54,599 nucleotides of DNA from a virus (IMGVR_UViG_3300032224_000681:1-54599), one strand, 5' to 3'. Positions 33,189 through 48,975 are shown, counted from the first letter of the stretch. The notes: generated from the sequence alone by a model not told the origin. Made by a program: numbers and translations.

Positions 33189-35222
33189 ATGGCACTATCT
33201 TTCCGACTAGCCGAAGACTTTTTAAAGGAGTACCGTGCTAAACAAGTGCCTTGGGGATACAAGGATGCTGGTGGTAATTCCGTTGGTGAAATTACTTTTC
33301 TCCGCACCTACTCTCGTCTAAAGGCTGACGGAACTAAGGAGACATGGACTGATGTTTGCCAGCGAGTAATCGAGGGCATGTACTCAATCCAAAAAGACCA
33401 CTGCAAATCTCAACGTCTTCCATGGAATGACTCTCGTGCTCAGGCGTCTGCTAAGGAAGCCTTTGACCGCCTGTTTAACTTAAAGTGGACTCCACCAGGA
33501 CGCGGACTCTGGGTAATGGGTACTCCCCTAGTGAATGAACAAAAGAACTCCGCTGCTTTGCAGAACTGCTCTTTCGTATCCACGGGCTCTATGACTAAGT
33601 TAGACCCTGCTAAGCCTTTCACCTTTCTCATGGAAGCATCCATGTTGGGAGTGGGCGTTGGCTTTGATGATAAGGGTGCGGACAAAGACTTCCCTATTTA
33701 CGAGCCTTCTAAAGATGAATCCAACCACCAGTTGTGGGAAATCCCAGATACCCGTGAGGGATGGGTGGACTCTGTTGGCATGCTCATTAACTCTTACTTA
33801 AAACCAGACCAGCCTAGATGGGTATTTGATTACACACTTATCCGCCCAGAAGGAGAACAAATCAAAACTTTCGGCGGCACAGCTGCGGGCCCAGCTCCGC
33901 TAGTTAAGTTGCACGACTATATCTCTACTATATTTGAAGGTCGGGCTACTCAAAAGTTAACCCGTAAAGATATTGCGGATATAGGAAATCTCATTGGCGT
34001 TTGTGTGGTCTCTGGCAACGTCCGCCGCTCAGCGGAACTTCTCATGGGTCGTTTAGATGATAAAGACTTCTTAAATTTAAAGAACCCTGCCGTCTATCCT
34101 GAACGCAACTCCTATGACCCTGCTAAGCCTGGTTGGGCATGGATGTCTAACAACTCTGTCGAGGTAAAGGTTGGGGATGACTTCTCTGGAATCATTGAGG
34201 GAATCTCTCTTAACGGAGAGCCTGGGGTTATCTGGATGGATGTTACCCGTCAATATGGTCGCCTCATTGACCCAATCAACAACAAAGACCATCGAGCTTC
34301 TGGTTACAATCCGTGTGCCGAACAGTCCCTTGAATCATTTGAGTGCTGTACTTTGGTTGAAACTTACCTCAACCGCCACGACTCTATAGATGACTATAAG
34401 CGCACATTGAAGTTTGCATATCTATATGCAAAAACTGTGACACTGCTTCCTACCCATTGGGAAGAAACTAATGCAATCATGCAACGCAATCGTCGTATTG
34501 GAACTTCTATGTCTGGTGTGGCTAACTTTGCAGACCGCGTTGGGCTTCCAACTCTCCGTTTATGGATGGACGAGGGTTATCAGACAATCCAACAGTATGA
34601 TAAGACTTATTCAGAGTGGCTAGGAATCCGCGAATCTATTAAGACTACTACTGTGAAGCCAAGTGGAACTGTATCTATCCTTGCTGGAGAATCTCCTGGA
34701 GTGCATTGGACGCCAGGTGGAGAATACTTTAACCGCGCAATCCGCTTTTCTAATGATGACCCTATGCTACCTCTCTTTAAAGCGTCGGGATATAAAATAG
34801 AAAAGGCGTCGGAATCTCCAAAAACCACTTCTGTGGTCTTCTTCCCTATTCATAGCTCAGCGTTACGCAGCGAAAAAGATGTTTCTATTTATGAAAAGAC
34901 TTCTCTCGCGGCTATGGCTCAACGTCATTGGTCGGACAACTCCGTATCTGTAACTGTATCCTTTGACGCAGATAAAGAAAAAGACGCAGTAGGAACTGTA
35001 CTTCACATGTTTGACGGGCAACTCAAAACCGTTTCCTTCTTACCTATGGGGAACGCGACTTACCCGCAAATGCCATATACACAGATAACTAAAGATGAAT
35101 ACGAGAAATCTACTATGAAGTTACTGCCTATTGACTTTACTGACGTATATGCAGGGATGGCAGCGGATGCAATCGGTGAGAAATACTGCTCAACTGACTT
35201 CTGTGAAGTACCTAAATCATAA
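33189..35222 (+). CDS. nrdJ: Class II (adenosylcobalamin-dependent) monomeric ribonucleotide reductase
   Basis: RTYSR, PPGRGLW, LQNC, GNVRRSAE, NPCAEQSL, TVKPSGTVS, C-terminal CxxxxC. Confidence 0.95.
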   Translation: MALSFRLAEDFLKEYRAKQVPWGYKDAGGNSVGEITFLRTYSRLKADGTKETWTDVCQRVIEGMYSIQKDHCKSQRLPWNDSRAQASAKEAFDRLFNLKWTPPGRGLWVMGTPLVNEQKNSAALQNCSFVSTGSMTKLDPAKPFTFLMEASMLGVGVGFDDKGADKDFPIYEPSKDESNHQLWEIPDTREGWVDSVGMLINSYLKPDQPRWVFDYTLIRPEGEQIKTFGGTAAGPAPLVKLHDYISTIFEGRATQKLTRKDIADIGNLIGVCVVSGNVRRSAELLMGRLDDKDFLNLKNPAVYPERNSYDPAKPGWAWMSNNSVEVKVGDDFSGIIEGISLNGEPGVIWMDVTRQYGRLIDPINNKDHRASGYNPCAEQSLESFECCTLVETYLNRHDSIDDYKRTLKFAYLYAKTVTLLPTHWEETNAIMQRNRRIGTSMSGVANFADRVGLPTLRLWMDEGYQTIQQYDKTYSEWLGIRESIKTTTVKPSGTVSILAGESPGVHWTPGGEYFNRAIRFSNDDPMLPLFKASGYKIEKASESPKTTSVVFFPIHSSALRSEKDVSIYEKTSLAAMAQRHWSDNSVSVTVSFDADKEKDAVGTVLHMFDGQLKTVSFLPMGNATYPQMPYTQITKDEYEKSTMKLLPIDFTDVYAGMAADAIGEKYCSTDFCEVPKS

Positions 35223-35237
35223 ACTAATATAAAAAGT

Positions 35238-35277
35238 AGAGAGCCCCTAGTTACCCGAAAACTAGGGGCTCTCTTTA
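35238..35277. terminator. Terminator at the convergence of plus- and minus-strand blocks
   Basis: AGAGAGCCCCTAGTT-N7-AACTAGGGGCTCTCT. Confidence 0.8.
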
Positions 35278-35369
35278 TTGGGAGAGGCGCAGGTCTATCT
35301 ATCCGAAGGGGTGGGTCATGGATAGCCTTAGAGGAAGCAATGAAAAACCTCTTTGACGCCTATATTAAG

Positions 35370-35528
35370 TTATTTACATTTAACGCAGTAATTAGGTGCG
35401 CGTAGGTTCTCGGGGTAAGTCCTATACATACGACCGCAGTGATAGCAAAGTACCGATACCTCACGGCTATCAGGAAACTCTCTCTTTAATATATAGATAG
35501 GGCTACGGAACTTAAACTTAATCTTCAT
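35370..35528 (-). CDS. Small zinc-ribbon protein (52 aa, not in ORF track)
   Basis: MKIKFKFRSP...CYHCG...YCVKCK. Confidence 0.55.
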   Translation of the reverse strand: MKIKFKFRSPIYILKREFPDSREVSVLCYHCGRMYRTYPENLRAPNYCVKCK

Positions 35529-35633
35529 CGTCTTCTAATTCATCATCATCATAGACATCATCATCTTCAATACTAGGTGAAGGTCTGCCCCACTCAGGGT
35601 CAGGAACTATAGGGTCAAAAGAATATCCCATGA

Positions 35634-35921
35634 TTAAATCTCTCTCTTGTACCCAACACTACCGATAAATAGTGCTGGCTTATCTTTAGCGTCTTTAATA
35701 TCTCCTGCAATCATCTTGCATGACTTTTTAGGGGTTAATGCAATTACCTGTTCTTTAATCCAACGCTTACCTGCGCTAGCGTTACTGAACGCCTCAAATT
35801 GCACATGGTTAGGTTCTACAATTCCTTCATCATAGGTAGTGATAGAACCTAGCCATGCGCCACCTTTATTAAGGTTCTTTACGAGTTTAGCGTCAAATCT
35901 TGCTGATACTTTTTTAGCCAT
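35634..35921 (-). CDS. Hypothetical protein
   Basis: AAGGAG RBS. Confidence 0.7.
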   Translation of the reverse strand: MAKKVSARFDAKLVKNLNKGGAWLGSITTYDEGIVEPNHVQFEAFSNASAGKRWIKEQVIALTPKKSCKMIAGDIKDAKDKPALFIGSVGYKREI

Positions 35922-36342
35922 TTAATTGCTCCTTAGTGATAGGCCAAACATACGGAAGGTTCTCGTCAATCGTAGGAAAATACTTGCGATAGTGCTCGGG
36001 TAACTTCCTAACTAGGTTCGCTTGGTGCGACTTATGGAAGTCGGGGTCGCCTAGCCATGACGGATAGACTACAGGTTCAACGGGGAACTTGTCTAGTAGG
36101 TTATCTACATACCCACGTCTGCGCCACTCAACACAAACTATGCGCCCGTACTCGTACAGGGCAGGGAGATTATCTCTCCACATAAGGACGGCAGGGTGGT
36201 TGCGCCACCCACCTCTCTCTCCGCTCTCTCCATTAAGCACACGCATAATTTGATAAGCCTCAACTCTCTGCTTACCTAATCGGCGCATATCTAATATCTT
36301 TGCGGTTCTCTCAAAACTCTCATACGGCAGGAAGGTCTGCAA
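35914..36342 (-). CDS. Pyrimidine-dimer DNA glycosylase / MSMEG_6728-like protein
   Basis: QTFLPY..LDMRRLGKQRVEAYQI..WRNHPAVLMW..WLG..FHKSHQANLVRK..YVWP; the family starts MQTFLP, so TTG at 36342 is the likely start. Confidence 0.85.
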   Translation of the reverse strand: MQTFLPYESFERTAKILDMRRLGKQRVEAYQIMRVLNGESGERGGWRNHPAVLMWRDNLPALYEYGRIVCVEWRRRGYVDNLLDKFPVEPVVYPSWLGDPDFHKSHQANLVRKLPEHYRKYFPTIDENLPYVWPITKEQLNG

Positions 36343-36366
36343 TCTCTCTCTCTCTCTCTCTCTCTC
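36343..36366. repeat. (TC)12 / (GA)12 microsatellite
   Basis: 24-bp perfect dinucleotide run between AAGGAG and the TTG start on the minus strand. Confidence 0.95.
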
Positions 36367-36368
36367 CT

Positions 36369-36512
36369 TTAGATAGACGCAGGACTCCCCTGCGGTACTA
36401 GGCACATCACGCAAAAGGCTAGTCCAACTGCTACCGCTTCGTCAATATCCATATCGTCGGGTGCAATTAACTCTCCCCTGTCGTATTCAATAAAACAACG
36501 ACCGCATCTCAT
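36369..36512 (-). CDS. Small zinc-binding protein (47 aa, not in ORF track)
   Basis: MRCGRCF...FCVMC; ATGA coupling with the upstream gene. Confidence 0.6.
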   Translation of the reverse strand: MRCGRCFIEYDRGELIAPDDMDIDEAVAVGLAFCVMCLVPQGSPASI

Positions 36513-36961
36513 TTTTCAATACCGAAATCTTCTAGGTTCTCATCAGTAATAGGTGTAGTGGGTTCTAATTTAATCTCCGTACCATATCCCTGATAAATAA
36601 CATTTCCTTCTTCATCTTTAATCATAACTACTTCTCTCGCTGTTGTAATAAAATCTTGTAGGTAGTGGCTATCAACAATAACTTCTACTGTTGCTTTGCT
36701 CTCTCCTTTATATTTAATTCCTTCGGGCAATTCAATAAGGCTATCCCACTCCCCTTCGTTAGCGTATGCGATAGCCGATATGCAGGTATCCACCATTGCT
36801 AGTGGTACGGGTGGGGTAAGGTTATTTTGTAGGTGGTACGCGACGGACTTCCAATAGTCGCTTACTTCCTCTGCTACTTCCTGTTCGTCGTTGATAATCT
36901 CGCCTTCGATAATCTCATTACCTTGTGCGTCGTGACCAATAACCTCATAGTCGTTAGACAT
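36509..36961 (-). CDS. Acidic hypothetical protein
   Basis: AGGAG RBS. Confidence 0.75.
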   Translation of the reverse strand: MSNDYEVIGHDAQGNEIIEGEIINDEQEVAEEVSDYWKSVAYHLQNNLTPPVPLAMVDTCISAIAYANEGEWDSLIELPEGIKYKGESKATVEVIVDSHYLQDFITTAREVVMIKDEEGNVIYQGYGTEIKLEPTTPITDENLEDFGIEK

Positions 36962-37415
36962 GATAGGACACTCCTGTTCTTAGGTTTCTTTGATACATAA
37001 CTTCGGTAATTGTATCCCGTGTTAGACAATTATTACAATCGCATGCTAACGGGTGTCCTTCAATAAGCCTATCTAACTCATCTAATAAGTCTGTTACGTT
37101 CATGCTATCTCCTTTACAATAAGGTTAGCCTTGTGGATAAGGTCGCCGTATTCCTGACGCACCCACTCATCTGCTAACGCTAGGGCTTCCGCGCTTGTAT
37201 CTGTATTCCACGCGGTTGATATATCCGCTACAACTCTTACTTCGTACTTAGGCATATTCCTCTACCTCTCGTTCAATTACGCCTTCTACAATAAGGCTAT
37301 CTAATAGGTCTGTTACATTTCCTAGACGACCTTTTAACTTTGGGTCATTTACTGCGAATCTTGCTTCCTCTATCGCGTTAATCATGGAGTATAGGTTTGC
37401 TTTAGTGTAGTCCAT
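36954..37415 (-). other. Three small coupled ORFs below the track cutoff (36954-37103, 37100-37255, 37248-37415)
   Basis: Stop/start overlaps and RBS-like sequences; MNVTDLLD.., MPKYEVRV.., MDYTKANL.. Confidence 0.6.
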
Positions 37416-37690
37416 TAGTAGTTATCCATTTCTCTATCTAACTCATTTAAGTAGCCTACAATAGGCGGTTCTATATCTAATTCCTGCATTAGTCCATAGA
37501 TACTGTCGTTAGCCTCATCTAGCACCATGCGTTCGTCATGGTAGTCAAGGCTCTCTAGGCGTTCGTCGTCTGCACCACGAAGGTATGCGGTATCCAACGC
37601 TACTCCTAGCGCGGTATCTACTAGGGTTTTCGCGTTCTCGTCACCCTCTAGGTATTTCTTTAGTAGTTCTGTATATAGTGGTACTTTCAT
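37415..37690 (-). CDS. Hypothetical protein
   Basis: Coupled to neighbours; a further 52-aa ORF lies at 37687-37845. Confidence 0.7.
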   Translation of the reverse strand: MKVPLYTELLKKYLEGDENAKTLVDTALGVALDTAYLRGADDERLESLDYHDERMVLDEANDSIYGLMQELDIEPPIVGYLNELDREMDNY

Positions 37691-37922
37691 TTGCTTTTAT
37701 CCTCTAGGTAGAATAAGTAATCTAACGCGCTATCGCATGCGTTCATGCCGTATAGGTCGCCTTCCGCTTCCTCATGGGCTTTTAATCGGGTTAGTAGTTC
37801 TTTTAGTAGTTCTTTGTAATCTATATTTGGGTCTATATATTCCATATTTACTGCCCTTCTGTTTGTGTTGTAGCGGATACCTGCACTTTCAACTGCAAGT
37901 ATCCGCCCGAACGTCTGTTCGC

Positions 37923-39809
37923 TTAGTGCCTCTTACCCATTACCAACTGCACTAGGTCTTTGGCAATATCCACTAGGTCGCGTGGCTCTGATACTACACG
38001 CATTACCTGTGCTTCGTGACGTACTTCCTTCGTATAACGTTGCCACGCGTCGTAGTCGCGCTCTTTGTACCAATCAAGGTCACCGAGGAAGGCTACGCTA
38101 GTCATAACACCTTCGTTAGATAGTTCTTTAATAATCCTATCGTTCTGTTCGGTCATATCCCATGAGCCGTCGGTTACCACGAATAGAATCTTTACGCCAC
38201 GACGGCTAGTGCGAAGTATGCGTTGCGCTTCTAATAGGGCTTTGTAAGGGTTAGTGCCACCGCTACTCTGAACGTATCGGTACTCTGTTGGCTTTGCTTT
38301 GTCCTCTGCACTATAAATTAGGCGAGAGTCATGGTTAAACTTATAAACGGATACGCGCCCGTTGATACGTTCGATACCGCGCTTGATAGTCCATGCGCTT
38401 TCCATAGTTCTCTGCATTTGCCACGACATGCTACCGCTAGTATCTACTAGGACTACCGCTTCTATGTCGTTGTTGGAGTTACCTTCCGACCACCTGTCGA
38501 ATAGGCGGTTAATATCGTTAATATCTGCCTTCATGGCACGACCTATATTTAACCGACCGCTTTCTACTTCTAACTCCCATGCAGGGTCGTTATCTATGCG
38601 TAGGCGTTCCATAGCCACGGCGAACGCTCTCGCGCTTACCTGCAACTTAGGGCTAACTGTGCTATTGGTATATGAACCCTGCTTAATAGCACTATGAGAG
38701 TTAGAATTACTGCGGATAGCCTTACGGACTTCCTGTGTATCTCGCTTAACGTCGTCACTCTTAATAAGATTATCTAGTGCGTTGTTAATCTTATCTTTAA
38801 GTTCCTTATCATCTGCGCTCTGCTTATCTGATAAGCCTGTTGTATCGTTGTTGTTAGTGTGGTCGGTTGGTTCGTCAAGGTTCTCATTACCTGCGCCACT
38901 ACCATTTTCTTGATTAGTAGCCTTATCTTGTAGTTTCTGTTGTTCCTTGTTACCTTCCATGCGACCTTTATCCATAAGTCCGCGCTCACCATGTCCACCG
39001 CCGTCCTGTGGGATAGGGCTATTACCTTGCGGTTGCTCATCTGTGCCGACTATCTGTGCGAATTGTCGGAGAATATCCAACGCTCTCGCATAGTCGCGTG
39101 GGAATACTAGGGTGCGGTATTCATGGATAATTACGGATAGTAACTGTGCAGTTTCTACACCATGCTTCTTAATAAATCTATCTGCGAGTTCCTGTCGTAA
39201 CTCTATATCTAAATACTTACGTCCTGTAAATAGTGGGAAGTAATCGGCAAACTCATGGGAGTTACCTTTCAGGATATATTCTAGGCAGGAAGCCTCTAGG
39301 AAGGGTGCGGTTGCAGGATACTTAGCGATTAGTAGTCGTTCGATACGGCTATCCTCTAGGATATTGAAGGCTCTACCTAAGCCTTCCTTTCTGATAGTCG
39401 TACCAAACTCACTACCACCACGGGGAGTCCATAGGACATGCGCGACCTCATGGTAGTTGAACCCATGAAGGCTCACGATACTTTCGTCGGTTACGTCCTC
39501 TAGTAGGTGCGCGTTGAACACGATATTCTTGCCGTCGTTATAGGCGGTCGTATCCATGTCGGGGTTATCCTCAACGCGTACTTCTACGGGGTCGCCTGTA
39601 ATAATCCTATCTGCTTTAGAATAGACGATACCAACGCTCTGTAACTTTTCGATATGAGCATTAACTTCGTCGGCTCTCGCTTCGATAGCGTCATAGTCGG
39701 TGACCCAATTACCTTCATCATCACGGCTAGAATAATTACCGCCGTAACGAAGTTCGTTAATAAGGTTATCTAATATGTCGTTCTGATTAGCCTTAGGCAT
39801 TTGCGTCAC
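37923..39809 (-). CDS. vWA-domain protein with N-terminal HEXXH metallopeptidase-like motif (CobT-like architecture)
   Basis: TAYNDG, YHEVAHV, NILEDSRIE; MIDAS DTSGSMS, GGT, VTDG. Confidence 0.85.
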   Translation of the reverse strand: MTQMPKANQNDILDNLINELRYGGNYSSRDDEGNWVTDYDAIEARADEVNAHIEKLQSVGIVYSKADRIITGDPVEVRVEDNPDMDTTAYNDGKNIVFNAHLLEDVTDESIVSLHGFNYHEVAHVLWTPRGGSEFGTTIRKEGLGRAFNILEDSRIERLLIAKYPATAPFLEASCLEYILKGNSHEFADYFPLFTGRKYLDIELRQELADRFIKKHGVETAQLLSVIIHEYRTLVFPRDYARALDILRQFAQIVGTDEQPQGNSPIPQDGGGHGERGLMDKGRMEGNKEQQKLQDKATNQENGSGAGNENLDEPTDHTNNNDTTGLSDKQSADDKELKDKINNALDNLIKSDDVKRDTQEVRKAIRSNSNSHSAIKQGSYTNSTVSPKLQVSARAFAVAMERLRIDNDPAWELEVESGRLNIGRAMKADINDINRLFDRWSEGNSNNDIEAVVLVDTSGSMSWQMQRTMESAWTIKRGIERINGRVSVYKFNHDSRLIYSAEDKAKPTEYRYVQSSGGTNPYKALLEAQRILRTSRRGVKILFVVTDGSWDMTEQNDRIIKELSNEGVMTSVAFLGDLDWYKERDYDAWQRYTKEVRHEAQVMRVVSEPRDLVDIAKDLVQLVMGKRH

Positions 39810-41340
39810 CTTCTGCTAGGACTTCCATAAGCGCATTAAGCGACTTTAGTTCATCATCAAGTGCCTGTACGGCGGTAACGTCGGGGTCGTTAGTGCTAAC
39901 GACGGACTCGTATGAAGCGACCTGTGTGCCTACTTCTGTATTAGCAATAGCCTGTTCTAAATTAGTATTGCCAAACACACTAGCCTTATTAGTAACTTCT
40001 AGTCCTAGTTCCTCTGCGATATTGTCGCGGTGGGTATTGACGACTAGGCGAACGCTATTGCGTTCCTCATCACCCTCAAACGAATTAACGTAAGTGTAGG
40101 TAGCGAAGTCCATGCCAAACTGCTTTGCATGCTTTACGAACGCTACGAGTGAGCGAGTAGATACGGGGGTCAATAACGTACCCTTATTAAACTCATCACG
40201 AAGTAGGTTAGCCATATCTACTAGGGCTTTGTTACCGAGTAACTTCTGTTCGATAGGCTTATCGTATGGGAAGGATAGGCGTACTGCGAAGCGGTCGGCT
40301 AGTGCCTGATTAAGCGGACGTGTGCCACGATAGTCGGGGTTCATGTCTGCCACGATTAGTAGGTCGGGGTGAGCCTTGATAACTTCCCCACCATTTTCCA
40401 TAAGTTGTATCTCACGGCGGTAATCTAATAGGCTAAAGATAAAGGTAAGGAATCTTTCGGGTGCGAAGTTAATTTCGTTAAATAGTAGTACGCCACCATT
40501 ACGGACAATTTCTGTAACTGCGCCGTCCTGCCAACGGAAGTGACCTTCGGGGGTTGGAATCCAACGACCGATAAGGTGGGAAGCCTCTAGTCCAATATGG
40601 CATGCCACGTTGAAGTAGCGCATGCCACGGGCAGACGCATAAGCCTGAACGCTCATAGTCTTACCTGACCCTGCGTGACCTTCGATAAGGATATTCATAT
40701 CGTTGGCGTTGGCGTAGTCATATACCTCAAAGTCGGTGAGGTTACCCACGACCTTGCGGTTGATATATTCCTTAGCCCACTTCTTGTCGGGTACGGATAC
40801 CATAGCCGTAACTAGGCTATTAGATAGGTTGGCATTGTTAATAGTCGTAGTAGATACGACGGGTACTTCGATAACCTTAGTAGCGACCTCTGTTTCTACT
40901 GCCTTTGCGATAGGCTTAATAGATACACCGCCTGTACGACGCTTATCTGTAATGAAGTCGGCAAGGGTATTGTCGCCTTCCTCTAGGCGTGTAATAAGAC
41001 TATCTACTGCCTCATTGTGTGCCATTGGCGCGGTTGCTTCGGGTGCGCTTTCTAACGCATATAGGGCTTTGATACCGATATTGGTAATTTGCCCAAACTT
41101 CATCATTTCAATATCCCTATCTGATAGGACTACGGCGCATGGCGCGTGGCTAATATCGGTGGTTGGGATAGTGCTATCTGTAAGTCGTTGCCATGATTGA
41201 CCGCGACCCTTCTGTCCATTGGATACGCGGTGGTATCCAATAACCTCTGTATCTGTACCGATAATGAGAGTCTGCGCCTGTGCAGGTACTCCTTCTAGTT
41301 CGGCGTTAGACACTACGAGTAGTGCTAGATTTGTATTCAT
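39793..41340 (-). CDS. MoxR-type AAA+ ATPase (CbbQ/NirQ/CobS-like)
   Basis: GHAGSGKT, WQDGAVT, LLFNEIN, MNPDYRGTRPLNQALADRF, STRSL. Confidence 0.9.
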   Translation of the reverse strand: MNTNLALLVVSNAELEGVPAQAQTLIIGTDTEVIGYHRVSNGQKGRGQSWQRLTDSTIPTTDISHAPCAVVLSDRDIEMMKFGQITNIGIKALYALESAPEATAPMAHNEAVDSLITRLEEGDNTLADFITDKRRTGGVSIKPIAKAVETEVATKVIEVPVVSTTTINNANLSNSLVTAMVSVPDKKWAKEYINRKVVGNLTDFEVYDYANANDMNILIEGHAGSGKTMSVQAYASARGMRYFNVACHIGLEASHLIGRWIPTPEGHFRWQDGAVTEIVRNGGVLLFNEINFAPERFLTFIFSLLDYRREIQLMENGGEVIKAHPDLLIVADMNPDYRGTRPLNQALADRFAVRLSFPYDKPIEQKLLGNKALVDMANLLRDEFNKGTLLTPVSTRSLVAFVKHAKQFGMDFATYTYVNSFEGDEERNSVRLVVNTHRDNIAEELGLEVTNKASVFGNTNLEQAIANTEVGTQVASYESVVSTNDPDVTAVQALDDELKSLNALMEVLAEGDANA

Positions 41341-41594: not shown

Positions 41595-41857
41595 TCTCAT
41601 TATCATGGCTCTCTCTGCTAGTCAAATCTTTGTTAACCGAGTTATCCACAGGCGCGGCGGGTTTGTGTTGGGCAATAGCCTACGGCTTATTGCCCAACAA
41701 TGAAATGAGCCCTTTTTTAATATAAAAAAGGCTCAAAAAGGGTGGGTTAGTGAATAATGTATAATTGAATACATTATGAACGATGGGTGGGCCAACACAA
41801 ACATCCAGGCCCGCGGCATGAGAAAGCCCCTTGCTAGTCCAAATAGCAAGGGGCTTT
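41595..41857 (-). repeat. Element copy 2: promoter, DnaA box (41642-41650), multi-branched inverted repeat (41661-41802), terminator (41822-41857)
   Basis: TTGACT -35; TGTTAACCGAGTTATCCACAGG; GTTTGTGTTGG/CCAACACAAAC enclosing three hairpins. Confidence 0.85.
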
Positions 41858-41911
41858 GGTGGTATCACCCGAAGGGGACGGAGATACTACAACCTAGTAC
41901 CACCACTAGGA

Positions 41912-42316
41912 TTATGATAGACCCATTTTCTTCTGTATTTCTATTGCTAGGTCTAAATCTATGGGTTTGATAGTCTTATCTGAGTAGTCCTCGCCGTACT
42001 GATAGGTCTTGTTATCTTGTACGCTTATTAGATACATAGCACCTAGGCACTCCATACTCCAATTAGCGTCGTTCCAATCCCTATCCTCAGGTGTGAGGTT
42101 CATGTATTCGCGGATTAGCACTCCGTCGGGGTCTTTCTCCTCGTCCCACTCTGCGTCCTCGTCCCATGAGAAGTACAACGCATGAGCCTCTGCCATGTGT
42201 TCTGCCTCATCTGATGAGTTAGCCGTGCCGTGTGCGATACAGGAATCGCAATACCATATCCACCCACTAATAGTGCTACTACATGTGTTTGGGGTAATCA
42301 GGTCTTTAATTTGCAT
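41912..42316 (-). CDS. Hypothetical protein
   Basis: AGGAG RBS; CDSC..H. Confidence 0.7.
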   Translation of the reverse strand: MQIKDLITPNTCSSTISGWIWYCDSCIAHGTANSSDEAEHMAEAHALYFSWDEDAEWDEEKDPDGVLIREYMNLTPEDRDWNDANWSMECLGAMYLISVQDNKTYQYGEDYSDKTIKPIDLDLAIEIQKKMGLS

Positions 42317-42485
42317 TGGTGGTCTCCTCTACCTCTGTACATTGGGCTATCTTACTAATATCAAAACCATACTGTTCTAGTAGGTTCTCAATCGCGTATT
42401 CCACCGCGTCGTCCTCATCTACGGCGTTAATAGTCGTATGAAGTGTGAAGTAGTCAGCCACAAAGGTTACGTTCCAGTATTTCAT
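42306..42485 (-). CDS. Hypothetical acidic protein
   Basis: Start reassigned to MKYWNV (ATGA coupling). Confidence 0.65.
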   Translation of the reverse strand: MKYWNVTFVADYFTLHTTINAVDEDDAVEYAIENLLEQYGFDISKIAQCTEVEETTNAN

Positions 42486-42706
42486 TGTGCCACTTCTAAC
42501 ATCATATATGACCAACCCTCATTGGATTTCTCCATTACGGGCTTAATGCTATCTAATAGGGTTGATTTACCCGCCTCTACCATAGCCTCATTGGGGATAC
42601 CGCTAGTTACATACTCTAGATACTTGTGTTCCTCAATACATACATTGAACTGTACTGTGAAGGGTACTTCTACCAGTTTTACGCCGTTAATAACCTTAGT
42701 CGTCAT
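42482..42706 (-). CDS. Hypothetical protein
   Basis: Coupled ORF. Confidence 0.65.
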   Translation of the reverse strand: MTTKVINGVKLVEVPFTVQFNVCIEEHKYLEYVTSGIPNEAMVEAGKSTLLDSIKPVMEKSNEGWSYMMLEVAQ

Positions 42707-43208
42707 TTTTCACCATTTGTTCTAGTAAATCCTCTAGCCCTGCGTCTAGTAGAAAGATTGGGTCGAACTTCTGTGCCTTTGCCTCTACCGAAGCGTTAGG
42801 ACGGAATATGAGTGGTAGGTCGTCAGGTACTTCTACGTCCATAACTGCCAACATCTTACCTAACCCACCTAATAGCATTAGCATTGGTGTTAGAGCACCG
42901 CTAGCCCATGCGATATGGATTGCTAGGGTTATTGCACCCAAGTCGTCGTCATTGACCTGTTCGTCAGCGTCATGCTTGTTTCTGCAAGACTCGAAGCCTG
43001 TATTGGCGAGCGCGTTAATAAGGTTACCACGGAAGTCGTCGTCCTCTCTCATAGCCTGTGCCATGATAGCGGTCTTTAGATTGCCGTCTGATAAGCCTAG
43101 TGTGCCGTTAGGAAACATAGGCTCGTAACTCTCGTCCTCAAAATCAGGAAGTAGTTCGATTGTCGTCATTAACTCTGTAAAACGCGCTTTGCGTTCTGTG
43201 CTGTCCAT
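42696..43208 (-). CDS. Hypothetical acidic protein
   Basis: Start reassigned to MDSTERK after AAGGAG; the listed upstream start lies inside the promoter. Confidence 0.75.
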   Translation of the reverse strand: MDSTERKARFTELMTTIELLPDFEDESYEPMFPNGTLGLSDGNLKTAIMAQAMREDDDFRGNLINALANTGFESCRNKHDADEQVNDDDLGAITLAIHIAWASGALTPMLMLLGGLGKMLAVMDVEVPDDLPLIFRPNASVEAKAQKFDPIFLLDAGLEDLLEQMVKNDD

Positions 43209-43236
43209 AGTATCTCCTTTACTAAGTAACGGCGTA

Positions 43237-43428
43237 ACTATAATCCTCTCCCCCTCTCTCACCTAATATCTGTTCATGTAGTTATCCACAGGTGTTTGTG
43301 TTGGGGCTATTAGATGGCGCTTTGATAGATAAATCTATCAAAGCAATAAAAGCTTTAAATAGCCATCTAATAGCCCCAACACAAACTTTTACGGCATGAA
43401 AAAACCCCCGCCTTGCGGCGGGGGCTTC
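43237..43428 (-). repeat. Element copy 3: -10 TATAGT, DnaA box (43282-43290), 25-bp inverted repeat (43294-43318/43362-43386), terminator
   Basis: GTTTGTGTTGGGGCTATTAGATGGC and its exact reverse complement; stem CCCCCGCC/GGCGGGGG. Confidence 0.9.
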
Positions 43429-43444
43429 CTAGTAGGGGTATCTA

Positions 43445-43930
43445 CTAAGCCTCGTAAATCTCGACCTCGAGGTTATCATTTAGGAAATCATCTAAATCCC
43501 ATGTACCCACACGGAATGATGCGGAGTCATTTAAGACCGATAGGTCACCGCGAACTTCGATATCGTTGAAAGAGATATCGTCTAGAACCTGTTGCTTTGC
43601 GGCTTCTTCATCATCAGCCTCGATGTCATCAAGTTCAAGTACAACTTCACCCAAGAGGCTAACCTCTGCGCGAAATCGTGTGATAAGGTCGCTAGCCTCG
43701 GCTGTCTCCCAACCGCATGCAATCGCAATCTTATTAAATAGGTCAAGCGCGTCTTCTTCGGTCATTGAGGTACGAGCCTCGACTTTGAAGATATTAAGGA
43801 CATCTGCGCGGTTTTCTGCGCGGAGTGAATTACGTGCCATTTCTATAGCACGTGAGCGTTCTTCCTCTATGCGGGGAGCAATGTCGCTCTCCTCATAGTA
43901 GGTTATGTCGTTGAGTGTGAACATACCCAT
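43445..43930 (-). CDS. Hypothetical acidic protein
   Basis: Single-gene unit between two element copies. Confidence 0.75.
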   Translation of the reverse strand: MGMFTLNDITYYEESDIAPRIEEERSRAIEMARNSLRAENRADVLNIFKVEARTSMTEEDALDLFNKIAIACGWETAEASDLITRFRAEVSLLGEVVLELDDIEADDEEAAKQQVLDDISFNDIEVRGDLSVLNDSASFRVGTWDLDDFLNDNLEVEIYEA

Positions 43931-43969
43931 TCTTTCTCTTTTATAAGCACCCCTTGTGCTTATGGGATA

Positions 43970-44147
43970 AGAGTATTGGTTACTCGTCAGTAACTAAAAC
44001 TCTTGTTTACCTAGTTATCCACAGCCCCGTGTTTGTGTTGGGCTTGGGTATAAATAAGAGAGGCATTAATACATAGCTTTTAAATATACCCATCCCCAAG
44101 CCCAACACAAACAAATTAGCCCCCCGACTCCACTTCGGGGGGCTAAT
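43970..44147 (-). repeat. Element copy 4: -10 TACTCT, DnaA box (44015-44023), 19-bp inverted repeat (44030-44048/44095-44113), terminator
   Basis: TGTTTGTGTTGGGCTTGGG and its exact reverse complement; ATTAGCCCCCCGA/TCGGGGGGCTAAT. Confidence 0.9.
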
Positions 44148-44210
44148 CTGAGAACGGACTGTATGTCAACACAGTAAGCCTTTTATACTCATGCTCAGGA
44201 GTTAATAGTC

Positions 44211-44690
44211 TTACCAAGACGACTGATAGTAGAAACTCAAGTCGTCGATATTAGGCAAGGCAAGTATGCGGTCAATCTGTTTGATAGTGCTTTTTAGCCC
44301 GTTCCAATACCACTCGTCAATATCTGTAGTACCAAAGAAAAACCCTTCCATAGGCTTGATTAGCAGAGGATTTTTATGAAAGATAGCCTGACGGCATGCT
44401 TCACGCAATTCCTCTAACTTAGCCTTAGAAACGTAGTAGTTACCGCAATCGTCGTTGCCACCCTGAACGTTCTGTACGAACCAACCATGAACGGCGTTGA
44501 CCTTACGCCAGTAGGCGCAGGTAACTGAAACCTCTGCCCCATAGATGTCTGTATGGACTGCTTCTAAGCCAGCCTCTGTAACAACCTTATCAAATTGTTC
44601 CATAGTAACCCAAGCGTCGCTATCGCCCTTTGCGTTGTAGTCAATCTTGTTGATGTAAGTTGTTGCCCTTAGATACATATCTAGACCCAT
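44211..44690 (-). CDS. Conserved phage protein (MGLDMYL...YWRK.N..HGWF...YYQSSW type), function unknown
   Basis: Recognisable motif family; AGGGG RBS. Confidence 0.75.
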   Translation of the reverse strand: MGLDMYLRATTYINKIDYNAKGDSDAWVTMEQFDKVVTEAGLEAVHTDIYGAEVSVTCAYWRKVNAVHGWFVQNVQGGNDDCGNYYVSKAKLEELREACRQAIFHKNPLLIKPMEGFFFGTTDIDEWYWNGLKSTIKQIDRILALPNIDDLSFYYQSSW

Positions 44691-44737
44691 GTGATACCCC
44701 TTTGGTAGTTAAATCTCTCGCTCGGTGCGAGCCCCCA

Positions 44738-44920
44738 AGTATAATCACACATCTAATTCTCTTACCATATTCTGTTAACCCAGTTATCCACAGGCGAATG
44801 TTTGTGTTGGGTTGTTTGGATAATGGCTGATTTTGAGAGAATAAGCTTTCCCTATTTATTAACTACTAGCCAAACAACCCAACACAAACAAAAAAGCTCC
44901 GCACCTTTCGGTGCGGAGCC
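44738..44920 (-). repeat. Element copy 5: -10 TATACT, DnaA box (44784-44792), 21-bp inverted repeat (44799-44819/44870-44890), terminator
   Basis: TGTTTGTGTTGGGTTGTTTGG and its exact reverse complement; GCTCCGCACC/GGTGCGGAGC. Confidence 0.9.
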
Positions 44921-44935
44921 TTCTTGCTAGGCTTG

Positions 44936-45943
44936 CTAGACCCCAGCGTACTCGCGGACGGCGCGTAGGATACGAGCCTTCTCAGCGTTCACAGTAGGGT
45001 CGAAACCAGCAGCAGCGCCAACGATAGCCTCGTTATTGCTTGTACGACCAGCGCGGAAATAATCCAAGCGCTCAGTCAGTGCGTTAAGGGCGCCCCAGTA
45101 ATTGCCCTTGATATTGGTCTGGGTAGGGGACTGGAAATAAATATCATCCAGTAGGTCGCGCTTGGCTTGCCACTTGGTAAGTGACTGAGGCGCTGATTGT
45201 GCGTCAGGCTTAGGATAAATTGCGTTCACCAATTTATCCCATGCAACTGAGTCCATAGAGGACTGGAAAAGGTCTTTCGCAATGGTCTCGAAAGTGTCCA
45301 TGTGATTGAAAGTAAGCCCAAGAACGCGACGAGCCTCAGCGGTACGCTCGCCAGCCTTGAGAGTATGGCGCAACTTGAAAGATTGCTTAACGCCCTTGAG
45401 CGCCATATTGAGAGTGTTTTGGCAGACTACGCGAACTGGCGTAATCGACGCGGTAACACTGGCAGACCCGTCGTGTGAAGATGAGACGAGCAGATATGTA
45501 ATGGTCTTATCGTTCGCACCCTTAGGGTCGAGGATAAACTCACGAGGTACGACGAGGGAGCCGAAAACTACCTTGCCGTTTTTAATAGAGCCAGCAGATT
45601 CCCATGAGGCACCGCCGTCGAGGATATTGTCCCCGAACGCGAATAAATCCTCGTTTTGGAATACGCGATAGCGCTTACCAACGACCGCAAGGACATCCTT
45701 GCCAGCGTCGAATGGATTGGTGCGTGTGACCATGAATAGGTCAGTGGATGAGCGGTAATCCGCTGGATACTGGACAGGCTCGAGGTCTACACCCCAGCCA
45801 GCCAATTTGGCACTTTCCAGCATGTCGCTAGTAGAGACATGCTCGTCAATGCCGAAAGTACGATTAGCCAACTTATGCCATGCGGGCGCACCGCGCAAAG
45901 CAAAAGCCACCTCACCGTTTTGAACCTCGAGCGCATGAGCCAC
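44936..45943 (-). CDS. DUF932-family phage/plasmid protein
   Basis: MAH..AWH.L, VGKRY..QNEDLF, SAGSI, SSHDGS, TPVRVVCQNTL, WGALNALTE. Confidence 0.88.
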   Translation of the reverse strand: MAHALEVQNGEVAFALRGAPAWHKLANRTFGIDEHVSTSDMLESAKLAGWGVDLEPVQYPADYRSSTDLFMVTRTNPFDAGKDVLAVVGKRYRVFQNEDLFAFGDNILDGGASWESAGSIKNGKVVFGSLVVPREFILDPKGANDKTITYLLVSSSHDGSASVTASITPVRVVCQNTLNMALKGVKQSFKLRHTLKAGERTAEARRVLGLTFNHMDTFETIAKDLFQSSMDSVAWDKLVNAIYPKPDAQSAPQSLTKWQAKRDLLDDIYFQSPTQTNIKGNYWGALNALTERLDYFRAGRTSNNEAIVGAAAGFDPTVNAEKARILRAVREYAGV

Positions 45944-45990
45944 GAGAGTCCCCCTTCGGTAAATAACGCGAGACCTTCTCGCGTGTGCAT

Positions 45991-46175
45991 ATCTTAACCC
46001 TATCTCTCGTCTCTTATAATAATCTTGTTAACCTACTTATCCACAGGGCGCCGATTGTTTGTGTTGGGCTTGTTGCTAGTAGTTAAAGAAAGAAAGAAAG
46101 CTATTCCACTCAACATCAACCATTAACAACAAGCCCAACACAAACAAATAGCCCCAGCCGATTGGCTGGGGCTAT
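45991..46175 (-). repeat. Element copy 6: -10 TAAGAT, DnaA box (46037-46045), 21-bp inverted repeat (46055-46075/46127-46147), terminator
   Basis: TTGTTTGTGTTGGGCTTGTTG and its exact reverse complement; ATAGCCCCAGCC/GGCTGGGGCTAT. Confidence 0.9.
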
Positions 46176-46202
46176 GTTTTTTACACGGGGGGTGTAAAAC
46201 CC

Positions 46203-46604
46203 TTAGACGAGAGGCTCGTCAATTTTGAACAGGTCGCGTAGCGCCTGAAGTTGCTTTTGGTACTTGCGGGCTTGCGCCTTGTAGTTATCGCGTTCAGCGA
46301 TTAGGTCGGCTATCATTTTATCGACAGTACCGATTGCGCCTTCTTGCTTAGCCTTTTTGGTCTTATACTTACCGCGTGTCTTAGGCTTAGCATTAGCAGG
46401 ATTGTGTGTGCCTACGTGAATAGACATTTGTGGACGTGAGAGCGTTTGCTCACCACATGTGAGGCAACCATAACTGACTAGAATGTTGTTGCTTTCTTCT
46501 AGCCATGTTAATTCAACCATATTGTTGAAGAATGTACCTGCTCGCATTGGATTAGGTACAGTATTGCGCTCGCATAGAATTGCGTTTTTGCGTGTGAATT
46601 GCAT
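46203..46604 (-). CDS. C2H2-like zinc-finger plus coiled-coil protein
   Basis: CLTC-x12-HVGTH, basic linker, C-terminal heptads; start reassigned to MQFTRK. Confidence 0.7.
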   Translation of the reverse strand: MQFTRKNAILCERNTVPNPMRAGTFFNNMVELTWLEESNNILVSYGCLTCGEQTLSRPQMSIHVGTHNPANAKPKTRGKYKTKKAKQEGAIGTVDKMIADLIAERDNYKAQARKYQKQLQALRDLFKIDEPLV

Positions 46605-46709
46605 ATTATCACCCCCCTGTTGCACTAGAGTTTCTCCCTTAGGAGTTCGACGTATCTCGTCATGGTAGTTCTCCTATCTATCTAGATGAGCCGTGTTGCT
46701 CATGTGAGT

Positions 46710-46884
46710 ACTATAACCATAAATCCTAAATCTTATTCCCCCCTTGTTCATCTAGTTATCCACAGGCAGGAGTTTGTGTTGGGGCGTGTGTATATATAAA
46801 GAAGCTTTTAAGCCATACATACATACACACCCACACGCCCCAACACAAACAAGAAAGCCCCCTGTGACGGCAGGGGGCTTCTTG
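46710..46884 (-). repeat. Element copy 7: -10 TATAGT, DnaA box (46756-46764), 19-bp inverted repeat (46772-46790/46832-46850), terminator
   Basis: GTTTGTGTTGGGGCGTGTG and its exact reverse complement; AAGCCCCCTG/CAGGGGGCTT. Confidence 0.9.
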
Positions 46885-46896
46885 CAGGGGGTTTAG

Positions 46897-47199
46897 TTAT
46901 GCGGCTTGCCTTACGGCAAGCGCACGACGGATATAATTCTGTTGCTTGCTTGTAGTAGGGCTGAACTTCTGTTCTACTACATACCAGCCATTTTCCCCGA
47001 ACCATGCGATAGGCGTATTGTATGAGAAGACAATATAGGCGCCTTGCTTGAACTCGTTTGATAGTCTTATGAATTCATCGCCTAGACGTCCCGCGCCTGG
47101 TGTGTAATTCATATACTTACCGCTTAGAGATGAAGCCTCGAATGGCATGCGGTTGATAATGCGCTCGATTGCTTCTTTCTGATTAACGTGCATTTTCAT
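46897..47199 (-). CDS. Conserved phage hypothetical protein (SY.TPIA...S.TTSK type)
   Basis: YIVFSYNTPIAW..KFSPTTSKQQ; start reassigned to MKMHVN. Confidence 0.7.
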   Translation of the reverse strand: MKMHVNQKEAIERIINRMPFEASSLSGKYMNYTPGAGRLGDEFIRLSNEFKQGAYIVFSYNTPIAWFGENGWYVVEQKFSPTTSKQQNYIRRALAVRQAA

Positions 47200-47341
47200 A
47201 GTCGTAACCTTTCTGACTGTCCTCGTAACCCTCACTGTAACCCTTGAACCAGTAGGCGCGAGAGGTGAAGAAGAATACCGCTCCACCGATGATGATATCG
47301 ACGAGAAGATTGAAGCCGTTATAGAAGATGATTTCATGCAT
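47183..47341 (-). CDS. Small membrane protein
   Basis: One hydrophobic segment then GYSEGY..GY repeats; GGAG RBS. Confidence 0.6.
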   Translation of the reverse strand: MHEIIFYNGFNLLVDIIIGGAVFFFTSRAYWFKGYSEGYEDSQKGYDYENAR

Positions 47342-47513
47342 TGACTCGCTCCGCTTCCTTGTTAGCACACTCGTAGCAGATTTGTTCAATTCTATCCATG
47401 CAACCTAATAGAAACGCGTCTACGCCACTATGCACGATGTTTTCTGTTGTGCCACATATTGAACACTTGTTCATTTGATACCCCTATCTGTGAGCCCCTT
47501 GCTCACTGTCTGT

Positions 47514-47601
47514 AATTTATAGTTTTGTGTCGGTCTGTGCAACTATCTGTTAACTTAGTTATCCACAGGGTTTTAATGTGGGGGCAGGTTGCCCTGCCCC
47601 C
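47514..47601 (-). promoter_or_regulatory. Element copy 8: TTGCAC-N17-TAAATT promoter, DnaA box (47559-47567), hairpin; no long inverted repeat
   Basis: TGTTAACTTAGTTATCCACAGG; GGGGGCAGG/CCTGCCCCC. Confidence 0.8.
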
Positions 47602-47608
47602 TTGCGGG

Positions 47609-47797
47609 CTACGCCGTAATTTCTGCGATAGCCTTATTGATTGCCTTTTCTACCGCGTCGCTTGTAATTGTTTCGATAACCTTTTGGGAAACCGCATCTA
47701 CACGCGCCTGTAGGTCTGCGTTATCTAAAACGCCCTTAGAGATTGCTAGCGCTGAAAGTATCATCGCCCAATCCTCAGGTGTAAATTTATCCATATA
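47609..47797 (-). CDS. Small helical hypothetical protein
   Basis: GGGGTG RBS; start uncertain within a few codons; single-gene unit. Confidence 0.6.
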   Translation of the reverse strand, partial: YMDKFTPEDWAMILSALAISKGVLDNADLQARVDAVSQKVIETITSDAVEKAINKAIAEITA

Positions 47798-47846
47798 TAT
47801 CACCCCCTTGCCGTCATCTAGTAGGTCATTATTAAGTTATGAGAGA

Positions 47847-47959
47847 AGACTATTTGAAAGGCTTATTAGATGCAAACGCCCGTTAACCTAGTTATCCACA
47901 GGCTCTCTTGTTCTTGGGGTTCTTTTGCCAGTCCCTATGCCGTTCTAATGTTTGTGTTG
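47847..47959 (-). promoter_or_regulatory. Element copy 9: TTGCAT-N17-TAGTCT promoter, DnaA box (47892-47900), orphan half arm TGTTTGTGTTG (47949-47959)
   Basis: CGTTAACCTAGTTATCCACAGG. Confidence 0.8.
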
Positions 47960-48026
47960 ACCCACCCTCCCCATACCCCTACGGGGAATCGAGAGAGAGG
48001 CTGGGGGGGAAGTCCCAGCCTCTGCT

Positions 48027-48389
48027 CTACTTGATTACAGTAACCATATCTTTCCACGTGTAGTTTATGGTTAAAGCCTCGTGCCATTCGCACCACCATT
48101 CGCCGTTATATTCGGCGCCACACCATTCAGGTTCATCGCAGGTAACCCATACCACGATATCGTCTGACCGCTTGTACTTGCGCCATTCATCGTCGGGTGC
48201 ATGTAGTGCAGGTGCTGCCTTGCAACCTACCTTGATTACATCGTCAGTAATGCCGTAGTTGCGTGGGTTGTCCTGTATATCCAACAGGAGCGCGTCTACT
48301 GACTCGTACAACATGTTGTCATAGTCGGTGACGATTATGTCCGCGTTATATATCTTGCCCTTGATAGTGGGCGCTGTCTCGTATGCCAT
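48027..48389 (-). CDS. Hypothetical protein
   Basis: C..C..C..H pattern; TAATG coupling to a small upstream ORF. Confidence 0.65.
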   Translation of the reverse strand: MAYETAPTIKGKIYNADIIVTDYDNMLYESVDALLLDIQDNPRNYGITDDVIKVGCKAAPALHAPDDEWRKYKRSDDIVVWVTCDEPEWCGAEYNGEWWCEWHEALTINYTWKDMVTVIK

Positions 48390-48566
48390 TATTCGCCACG
48401 TCCCGTCAATAGTAGGAAAGCCTTACCTAGTTTGCTATTGCGATAGCACTCGCGCTTAGCGCATGTATCGCATAGGTGAAAGCGAGTTACTAGATGATAT
48501 TCGATTGCTCGTATCATGTTATCCCCCATGCTATTCGGTGAGCCCCTTGCTCACCTTGTATTGCAT

Positions 48567-48622
48567 ACACTATGCCATAGCCCTATTACATGCAAACGTT
48601 TGTTAACCTGGTTATCCACAGG
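48567..48622 (-). promoter_or_regulatory. Element copy 10: TTGCAT-N17-TAGTGT promoter and DnaA box (48612-48620)
   Basis: TGTTAACCTGGTTATCCACAGG; last copy before the strand switch. Confidence 0.82.
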
Positions 48623-48975
48623 TCTCCCGCTAGTCTCAGACCCCCCCACCCTTAAACGAAGTTACTGGCGAGTAGGCCACCAGGGCGCACCTATACCTGT
48701 ACATATATTAGAGAAGGCAGTAGCCTAAGGGGCATGAGTGCGGTTTATCTGGAATGGGTGCGGGAACGCAATAAAGTGCGGATGGCTAAGTGTGCCTGTG
48801 GAGCGCCTGCCGTAGACCTTCGATGTGAAGGCGCGTTGCTATTTCCTGCCTGTGAGAAACATGTGTAAAGAGTGCGGGAACTGTAGTCGGGAACACACCC
48901 GTACGATTGATGATGCCGTTGATGAGATTTTAGATTCACCCATTTAGGCAGTAGCTTTTCTGTCACTATACGGTT

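Follow-up and report, generated by a model that had tools for sequence, protein, structure and literature searches.

The window analysed here is the whole of a 54,599-nucleotide (nt) viral contig, IMGVR_UViG_3300032224_000681:1-54599, from an uncultured lake phage, and our subject is a block of leftward genes from which the tetranucleotide AGCT has almost disappeared. Plus-strand genes stop at 35222 and restart at 48976, and about 25 mostly small open reading frames (ORFs) on the minus strand occupy the interval, forming the only leftward module in the contig (35230-48970, minus strand, by ORF map). The AGCT-free stretch is this one discrete minus-strand module, 35.2-48.97 kb, which is purged of both AGCT and GGCC as judged by the ORF map, an AGCT map, synonymous-codon shuffles and a count of 6-bp palindromes, and selection against short restriction-type palindromes is far stronger in it than in the rest of the contig. 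Its architecture is one of repeated cassettes, each comprising a terminator, a long perfect inverted repeat, a DnaA-box word, promoter-like sequence and a gene, and the AGCT copies that survive sit between transcription units, mainly in the AT-rich interiors of the inverted repeats.

Pfam and PHROGs scans of 20 module ORFs gave names to a small number of genes. An AAA_5 (MoxR/CobS-like) ATPase gene (39793-41340, minus strand) and the VWA-domain (CobT-like) protein gene that overlaps it (37923-39809, minus strand) belong to the most heavily purged operon, a DUF932 protein gene (44936-45943, minus strand) served as the query for finding related loci, and a pyrimidine-dimer DNA glycosylase (DenV-like) gene lies at 35914-36414 on the same strand. 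A named function was absent for the remaining 16 of the 20. The 5′ part of the DenV-like ORF carries a CT dinucleotide run (36335-36377) at which the contigs of the source run break. G+C content is slightly higher in the module (0.44-0.49 vs 0.39-0.46).

Words missing from the module

An exact search returned 224 copies of AGCT in the window. The last copy left of the purged block lies at 34854-34857, within the plus-strand ribonucleotide reductase gene (exact search and gene call), and after it the word occurs at 43351, 44075, 44844, 44895, 46099 and 46803 and then at 48953-48956, the first copy past the block, on the promoter-proximal edge of the module. A first-pass annotation, made by eye from the sequence, had reported exactly these six sites for about 34.86-48.95 kb and had called AGCT common elsewhere, as the 218 copies outside the block bear out. 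Under a maximal-order Markov model, 45.0 copies are expected in the 14,095 nt of 34858-48952, where 6 occur, and 244.3 are expected in the remainder, where those 218 occur.

As a codon control, synonymous codons were shuffled 300 times inside each ORF, a procedure that preserves the protein and the codon usage of each gene. The 26 minus-strand ORFs contain a single AGCT (48953, at the module edge), with 43.7 ± 5.4 expected and a shuffle minimum of 28, whereas the 64 plus-strand ORFs contain 180 copies against 180.4 ± 10.0 expected. Codon usage and protein sequence therefore fail to explain the gap. The first-pass annotation had inferred selection against AGCT in the block and proposed a codon-aware count as its check; the inference is upheld by the count, and the depletion extends to noncoding DNA outside the hairpins and persists in relatives at 67-85% identity (below). 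Seven copies remain in 35230-48970 as a whole: the hairpins, which cover 475 of its 13,741 nt, have five, and the other two are the module-edge copy and the terminator copy at 44895, the only one of the seven in module DNA outside called ORFs and detected hairpins. When all 4- and 5-mers were ranked by longest site-free gap, CCAG, AGCTG and CAGC came first and AGCT (34854-43351) fourth, and the gaps of these top four (CCAG/CTGG, AGCTG, CAGC/GCTG and AGCT) all fall inside the module.

Other words are depleted as well. GATC and CCGG do not occur anywhere in the contig, where the Markov model expects 174 and 63 copies, and their absence from the module ORFs compares with 33.1 and 9.5 copies expected from the synonymous shuffle. 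By the same shuffle, GGCC is reduced to 3 copies in module ORFs (22.5 ± 3.5 expected) and to 39 outside the module (70.0 expected). Three of the module's four residual GGCC are intergenic (41790, 41808 and 48675), and two are assigned to a composite element at 41661-41805, described below. For 6-bp palindromes we counted the 48 that do not contain any of the four purged tetramers: module ORFs hold 67 against 128.4 ± 11.0 expected, and ORFs elsewhere 346 against 414.5 ± 17.1. TTCGAA, TCGCGA, TGCGCA and GCGCGC have zero copies in any called ORF. Depletion of TCGA is restricted to the outside of the module (33 vs 74.3).

Further words are missing from the left of the module. A gap scan outlines a sub-block at 35675-41533 without CCAG/CTGG, and within it CAGC/GCTG is missing from 36639 to 41476. 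In the left half (35.3-41.4 kb, comprising the AAA_5/VWA operon and the small genes beyond it) CAGC/GCTG occurs 3 times against 31.2 expected and CCAG/CTGG once against 23.0, whereas the right half is not depleted of either pair. Coding-strand CTG is scarce in the left half too (18 vs 45.1) and accounts for 3 of 168 Leu codons. The stretch 35675-41533 is also poor in CATC, CATT and ACAT. With this many words depleted, the module is better described as a nested, general deficit of restriction-type words, of which AGCT is the cleanest member.

Intergenic cassettes and the AGCT of their hairpins

In each intergenic unit, read on the coding strand, the stop codon is followed by a terminator hairpin that is rich in G+C and has a T run, then by a long inverted repeat and, 2-21 nt beyond it, by the word TGTGGATAA; a start codon lies 60-90 nt further on. 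TGTGGATAA is the reverse complement of TTATCCACA, a DnaA-box consensus word that matches TTWTNCACA, and perfect TTATCCACA is present in 11 copies, all within the module, where 0.54 are expected. Five of the boxes stand downstream of long hairpins, H1 to H5, and hairpins and boxes alike are on the minus strand. H1 (43294-43386) has a 25-bp perfect stem, encloses AGCT at 43351-43354 together with an inner hairpin, and is followed 3 nt downstream by its box (43282-43290). H2 (44031-44112, with AGCT at 44075-44078) is followed by the box at 44015-44023, H3 (44800-44889, AGCT at 44844-44847) by that at 44784-44792, H4 (46057-46145, AGCT at 46099-46102) by that at 46037-46045 and H5 (46772-46850, AGCT at 46803-46806) by that at 46756-46764. 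The sixth residual AGCT (44895-44898) spans the A/T run and stem of the DUF932-gene terminator (44895-44919, minus strand). The first-pass assignment of five sites to hairpin spacers and one to a terminator was thus accurate, as was the context WAGCTTT that it gave for the five, which is read on the plus strand at four sites and on the minus strand at 46099 in H4.

The remaining boxes have other surroundings. One (41642-41650, minus strand) adjoins the composite element (41661-41805, minus strand), which has the conserved arm words described below, nested small hairpins and the residual GGCC at 41790 and 41808, and no AGCT. Another, with TTATCCACA on the plus strand, stands ahead of the AAA/VWA operon (41450-41458, minus strand). 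Promoter cassettes without a long hairpin carry boxes at 47559-47567 and 47892-47900, and the first (rightmost) promoter cassette of the module carries one at 48612-48620, all on the minus strand. A lone box in the opposite orientation (37132-37140, plus strand) lies in coding DNA and is kept in two relatives (L023 and L024).

The 9-mer box is invariant across clades, and the sequence 3′ of it varies. In the clade of the window the box is followed by CTAGGT(G/T)AACA, and candidate promoter hexamers (TTGnnn, 17-18 nt, TAnnnT) lie at least 11 nt further on. With the promoter candidates beyond the box, the inverted repeats sit after one terminator and before the next promoter-like site. A simple sigma-70 scan gave 13 promoter-like sites, compared with 24.0 in shuffles, and did not pick up the cassettes. 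In several relatives TGAACA (TTAACA in the window) is present twice with 11-nt spacing directly after the box (L005:113, L026:5000 and L026:6552). Distant relatives group 3-4 DnaA-box words into about 130 nt, some of them as tandem copies with 11-nt spacing, in an origin-like arrangement; these clusters are found at L033:16033-16167, L035:5674-5803 and L036:15641-15768, and in L006.

One cassette differs in presence between relatives. The segment 44024-44878 (gene 44211-44690, hairpin and box) is found in the window and in L023 and is missing from L024, L025 and L010, and both end points of the loss are at conserved hairpin arms, in what is a single case (three loci, two other contigs).

The window and 36 related loci together gave 36 distinct hairpins. 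Their stems pair perfectly over 19-25 bp, and their interiors measure 30-51 nt and are 62.7% A+T. The arms are conserved at the base (GTTTGTGTTGGG / CCCAACACAAAC); the extension beyond it varies in sequence but pairs perfectly. Substitutions in the conserved arm are compensated in the other arm in nine of nine elements, through three kinds of change, with two of the nine being one element seen on both strands. There are no wobble pairs or mismatches in any of the 36 stems, and this, together with a position outside the transcription units, suggests that pairing at the level of DNA fits better than an RNA processing site. RNase III processing hairpins such as those of the T7 early region lie inside a transcript between genes, with stems that tolerate wobble pairs and internal loops; we rejected them on both counts, given that the repeats here come after a terminator and before the next promoter-like site. 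Hairpin promoters of the N4 type have a 5-7-bp stem and a 3-nt loop and are read by a giant virion RNA polymerase; they too were set aside, in view of the stem and interior lengths above and of a largest ORF of 847 amino acids (aa) in the fragment. A transposable element resembling miniature inverted-repeat transposable elements is a poor fit too, as copies share just the 12-nt arm base and the remaining stem differs yet pairs perfectly.

AGCT is the most enriched tetramer of the hairpin interiors. It is found in 24 of the 36, compared with a mean of 5.40 in mononucleotide shuffles, and none of 5000 shuffles reached 24; with one hairpin taken per family it is found in 10 of 16 (2.44 expected), a number again reached by none of 5000. 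In the predicted folds, 17 of the 23 AGCT that lie wholly within interiors are unpaired. The near-universal core is the shorter GCT, present in 33 of the 36 hairpins (18.0 expected), and A precedes GCT in 25 of 63 cases, above the 25% A content (p 0.007). The position of the word spans 0 to 0.76 of the interior length, and residual AGCT are 20-60 nt from a DnaA-box word. In one orthologous hairpin family two phages have AGCT, a third CGCT and a fourth TGCT at the same place, and the orthologue of H2 in a relative (L009:1913) has lost its AGCT. Two hexamers are also common in the interiors, where 0.6 occurrences of each are expected: TAGTAG, which resembles the trinucleotide repeats bound single-stranded by DnaA at origins, is present in 8 of the 36 and GTGTGT in 11.

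The first-pass annotation had held that AGCT is kept in the spacers and may be their functional core. Retention stands as a tendency, on the enrichment across hairpins and across families, but 12 of the 36 hairpins lack the word. As an indispensable core AGCT is not supported, given those 12 homologous hairpins, the orthologues that carry CGCT or TGCT, the counterpart of H2 without it, the variable position and a near-universality that belongs to GCT only. The loop AGCT is a favoured word without being an indispensable one.

Related loci and the wider contig

The 36 related loci came from an IMG/VR pattern scan and a protein-seeded scan. We compared AGCT density in L023, L025, L026, L024, L010, L002, L004, L017, L027 and L028, at 67-85% DNA identity to the window, and found 0-2 AGCT per kb in the homologous modules and 2-16 per kb in their flanks. 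The CAGC and CCAG gaps reappear over the AAA_5/VWA operon of relatives, and in each of the relatives examined no other part is purged as heavily as this operon. Divergence to 67-85% identity would have refilled an inherited gap, and the purge is therefore being maintained.

The purged words themselves change with lineage, as judged by observed counts against Markov expectation in the module. Those purged in the module only are AGCT and GGCC in the window and L027; AGCT in L026, L002 and L029; AGCT, GGCC and ACGT (5 vs 44) in L023; TGCA (3 vs 22) in L030; and AATT, ACGT, ATAT, CGCG, GGCC, GTAC and TGCA (0 vs 15) in L031. In every locus of this comparison the flanks retain the module-purged words. 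Host-specific restriction pressure acting on a single exposed module would be expected to leave just this, a word set that varies with lineage at a fixed place, and the finding argues against a phage-intrinsic AGCT signal as the cause of the purge.

The contig is an IMG/VR fragment of class linear with a completeness estimate of 57%, and hence no whole genome. Complete relatives measure 96-98 kb; two of them fall in the class with direct terminal repeats, although where an assembly is cut is arbitrary. The contigs of the window, L023, L025 and L026 all terminate within one repeat-rich ORF at 52.8-54.6 kb, and we read these shared ends as an assembly break rather than a DNA end. In the window this ORF (52762-54597) is very dense in GCWGC, CAGCAG and CTGCTG. 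A circular contig was considered, as an ORF that runs off the end and one that runs in at the start share a frame, and dropped, as homologues of the first ORFs are not found beyond the end ORF in L016, L027 or L001.

Outside the module, the plus strand encodes replication and repair functions (a DnaB-type helicase, a primase, PolA, a UvsX-like recombinase, a RuvC-like resolvase and a helicase), as well as the ribonucleotide reductase, a baseplate wedge protein and a PHROG 887 protein with a queuine tRNA-ribosyltransferase annotation. The PHROG 887 protein (31625-33079) is 484 aa long and adjoins a GNAT acetyltransferase. No capsid, portal or terminase gene was found among the 25 of 64 plus-strand ORFs scanned. 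The only matches in an Rfam search were three tRNAs, which are adjacent genes for Asn-GTT, Gly-GCC and Gln-CTG at 13398-13624, within the replication region of the plus strand. When compared with 50,697 phage records, the module DNA gave no megablast match and just two blastn matches, of 76-121 nt. This phage collection has no close cultured relative, the best PolA matches being about 41% identical and from Streptomyces phages.

Runs with related DNA are labelled freshwater metagenome, and in most of them the share of the sampled words is small. All 21 runs listed consist of assembled contigs, and the four that were examined show no molecule ends. RNA-library contigs from relatives cover module genes, for instance at 43380-43912 and 45504-45974, but such contigs are uninformative on transcripts, starts or levels and do not count as evidence here. 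Relatives of the reductase gene give a weak hint of a host among the Actinomycetota, which contribute 11 of 19 cellular loci, including all 6 isolate genomes; the remaining 8 are metagenome-bin contigs of assorted phyla. A cyanobacterial host, considered on account of orphan GATC, GGCC and CCGG methylases, was dropped in favour of this weak actinobacterial hint.

Probable restriction avoidance and its alternatives

The pattern is consistent with restriction avoidance that is ongoing, host-specific and concentrated on a single module, in the manner of T5 first-step-transfer DNA. Our preferred explanation, which we regard as probable though far from secure, is that the module must function while host restriction is active and that the surviving AGCT are part of a loosely conserved loop word. 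Module DNA would have to work in the cell while type II restriction enzymes of the host still act, either entering first or needing expression before a protective function acts, and only sites inside the module would be costly. The loop word would consist of a GCT core with A preferred in front, and might be read by something or aid the opening of the repeat. In an extruded repeat AGCT would be single-stranded and no substrate for a duplex-cutting enzyme, which would make it cheaper to keep there. For the loop AGCT itself we maintain only that it is a preferred component of a constrained word in the loops of inverted repeats that pair as DNA, kept where a cut would spare every transcription unit; DnaA binding, entry order and hairpin extrusion are what we infer.

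The first-pass annotation had pointed to first-injected phage DNA, and experimental precedents for that analogy are in print. T5-like phages are reported to resist Type I, II and III systems unless sites are present in the first-step-transfer region (PMC10644984), and for Murciavirus (Autographiviridae) sensitivity is described as set only by motifs in the first-injected, highly variable early region (PMC12455610). The T5 first-step-transfer region holds TTATCCACA boxes and inverted repeats with spacers, and Davison proposed, as a hypothetical model, that they tether the DNA to membrane-bound DnaA until a restriction-like cut at a nearby palindrome releases it (bioRxiv 10.1101/866236).

The likeness to the first-step-transfer (pre-early) DNA of T5-like phages (Tequintavirus) lies in one block, presumably early here, with DnaA boxes, spaced inverted repeats and many small genes of unknown function, and the T5-type distribution of sites is seen here in sequence alone, the module having AGCT 1 vs 43.7 and the rest of the contig 180 vs 180.4. 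The T5 block is an 8% terminal repeat, whereas the module takes up about 14 kb in a genome put at 96 kb and is known from assembled contigs. T5 has one injection-stop region with paired boxes inside inverted repeats, whereas here single boxes stand outside the repeats, at no fewer than 10 promoters. T5 carries A1 and A2 for second-step transfer, and neither was found in the 20 module ORFs by PHROGs and Pfam, which distant relatives would escape. The resemblance to the leading region of Autographiviridae (Murciavirus and T7-like phages) is that restriction sensitivity is tied to the first-injected early region; the Murciavirus case concerns a Type I motif in a podovirus with transcription-driven entry, whereas ours concerns type II-like palindromes in a phage with baseplate-wedge genes.

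Three other known systems share features with the module. The PeSL (promoter-early stem-loop) cassettes of T4-type phages are repeated units that join a promoter to a stem-loop or terminator; they lie among small non-essential genes and have been proposed to promote modular shuffling (PMC2839356). As far as sequence can tell, the T-run terminator hairpins, the box with candidate promoters and the small ORFs without known families resemble them, and cassette 44024-44878, with its end points at hairpin arms, provides one case of gain or loss. PeSLs combine a sigma-70 promoter and a terminator, to which the cassettes here add a 19-25-bp inverted repeat with a 30-51-nt interior, a DnaA-box word and purged surroundings. 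As in genome-wide palindrome avoidance by phages, 4- and 6-bp palindromes fall below composition-aware expectation, but in this contig, which lacks two words altogether, avoidance at its strongest stays within one sharp-edged module, and one purged word is enriched in defined noncoding elements. Like the DnaA boxes of oriC and of promoters, the boxes are perfect 9-mer consensus words, each adjoining an AT-rich stretch (62.7% A+T); oriC boxes cluster, whereas here the putative boxes are single, one per promoter, with no origin-type cluster.

Several observations weigh against the preferred explanation. The left-half gaps concern the non-palindromic CAGC/GCTG and CCAG/CTGG as well as CTG, for which classical palindromic type II sites are insufficient. 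Relatives are less clean than the window: with ORFs from a crude caller, the 51 residual AGCT in seven modules divide into 20 in ORFs, 15 in hairpins and 16 in other noncoding DNA, and the spacer-only pattern of the window is the clean extreme of a tendency. The six or seven residual AGCT could still be cut whenever the DNA is duplex. Pfam and PHROGs revealed no known anti-restriction family in the 20 module ORFs scanned. For the host and its enzymes the sole pointer is the weak one given by the reductase relatives in Actinomycetota, and early expression of the module is something we infer from its architecture alone. Finally, entry order finds no support in runs that are assembled contigs without molecule ends and in a record about 57% complete.

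One alternative is that the module avoids the words of the phage's own early nuclease, which would degrade host DNA, and that the kept sites are deliberate cleavage points, as in the A1 restriction-enzyme model that Davison proposed for T5. The 20-60 nt between residual AGCT and DnaA-box words would suit such cleavage points, as would an enrichment in loops that goes beyond mere tolerance. We nevertheless consider this unlikely: the scan of 20 module ORFs recognised no such nuclease, separate protection would be needed for the remainder of the contig, where AGCT is at expectation, the difference in purged sets between close lineages would require co-varying nuclease specificities, and a third of the hairpins (12 of 36) have no AGCT to cleave. 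It is just as doubtful that the inverted repeats are designed weak points in a cut-tolerant, sacrificial early block, with the loop AGCT as the place of cut or release. AGCT would then be retained only in AT-rich, DnaA-box-flanked interiors between self-sufficient promoter-gene-terminator cassettes, such that a cut by a host AGCT enzyme, or by a phage enzyme of the kind in Davison's T5 model, would leave every cassette expressible; alternatively, DnaA-assisted opening of the repeat might conceal AGCT as single strand.

Protection rather than entry order might differ along the genome, the bulk being shielded by DNA modification and the module being unmodified or avoiding the modification motif. 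Phage DpdA enzymes are reported to modify G in short motifs and to protect against restriction (PMC7544227, PMC10484667). A candidate 7-deazaguanine inserter is at hand in the DpdA-like ORF at 31625-33079, which matches phrog_887 (queuine tRNA-ribosyltransferase) at E 4e-54, and the non-palindromic, G-containing words missing from the left half could represent a modification motif. The DpdA-like protein lacks a Pfam TGT match, none of the solved structures is related to it in sequence, and neither preQ0-synthesis genes nor C5 or N4/N6 DNA methyltransferase domains were found in the fragment. Motif-specific modification also gives no reason for a regional boundary, and the contig-wide avoidance of GATC and CCGG indicates that sequence avoidance is used outside the module too. 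We accordingly judge this to be quite unlikely.

It is improbable that AGCT is a phage signal in the hairpin loops, such as the nick, cleavage or sensor site of the first-pass annotation, purged elsewhere in the module to keep the signal unique. The purge from 14 kb combined with enrichment in loops speaks for it, as does an A before GCT beyond what loop composition gives (25 of 63, p 0.007). A 4-base word read in its structural context needs no purge of duplex copies, though, and GGCC and 6-bp palindromes are purged in the same module, distant relatives purge other words there, and in the loops AGCT is missing from 12 of 36, its A varies between orthologues and its position is not fixed. Least probable of all, and already disfavoured, is that no present selection acts and that the module is a mosaic piece from a lineage of other composition or host history with loop AGCT as chance survivors; its slightly higher G+C and the gain and loss of cassettes (gene 44211-44690 is absent from L024, L025 and L010) would be in keeping with this, but relatives at 67-75% DNA identity still show the purge within unchanged boundaries, shuffles that retain the module's codon usage still expect 43.7 AGCT, and the loop enrichment was matched by 0 of 5000 shuffles.

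Region-specific restriction avoidance is already in print for T5-like and T7-like phages. At the level of listings, the literature that we searched described none for this phage group, and no purged word enriched in inter-cassette hairpins. If restriction avoidance on a module that must work while host restriction is active is the right explanation, then region-specific avoidance readable from sequence would mark the part of the genome first exposed to host defences in an uncultured phage, and the approximately 25 unknown genes of the module are a place to look for new anti-defence functions. Because it changes with lineage, the purge also keeps a record of the restriction systems of hosts not yet brought into culture. 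The enrichment of a purged word in hairpins was unexpected, and it offers a concrete, mutable target for the function of these DnaA-box and inverted-repeat units.

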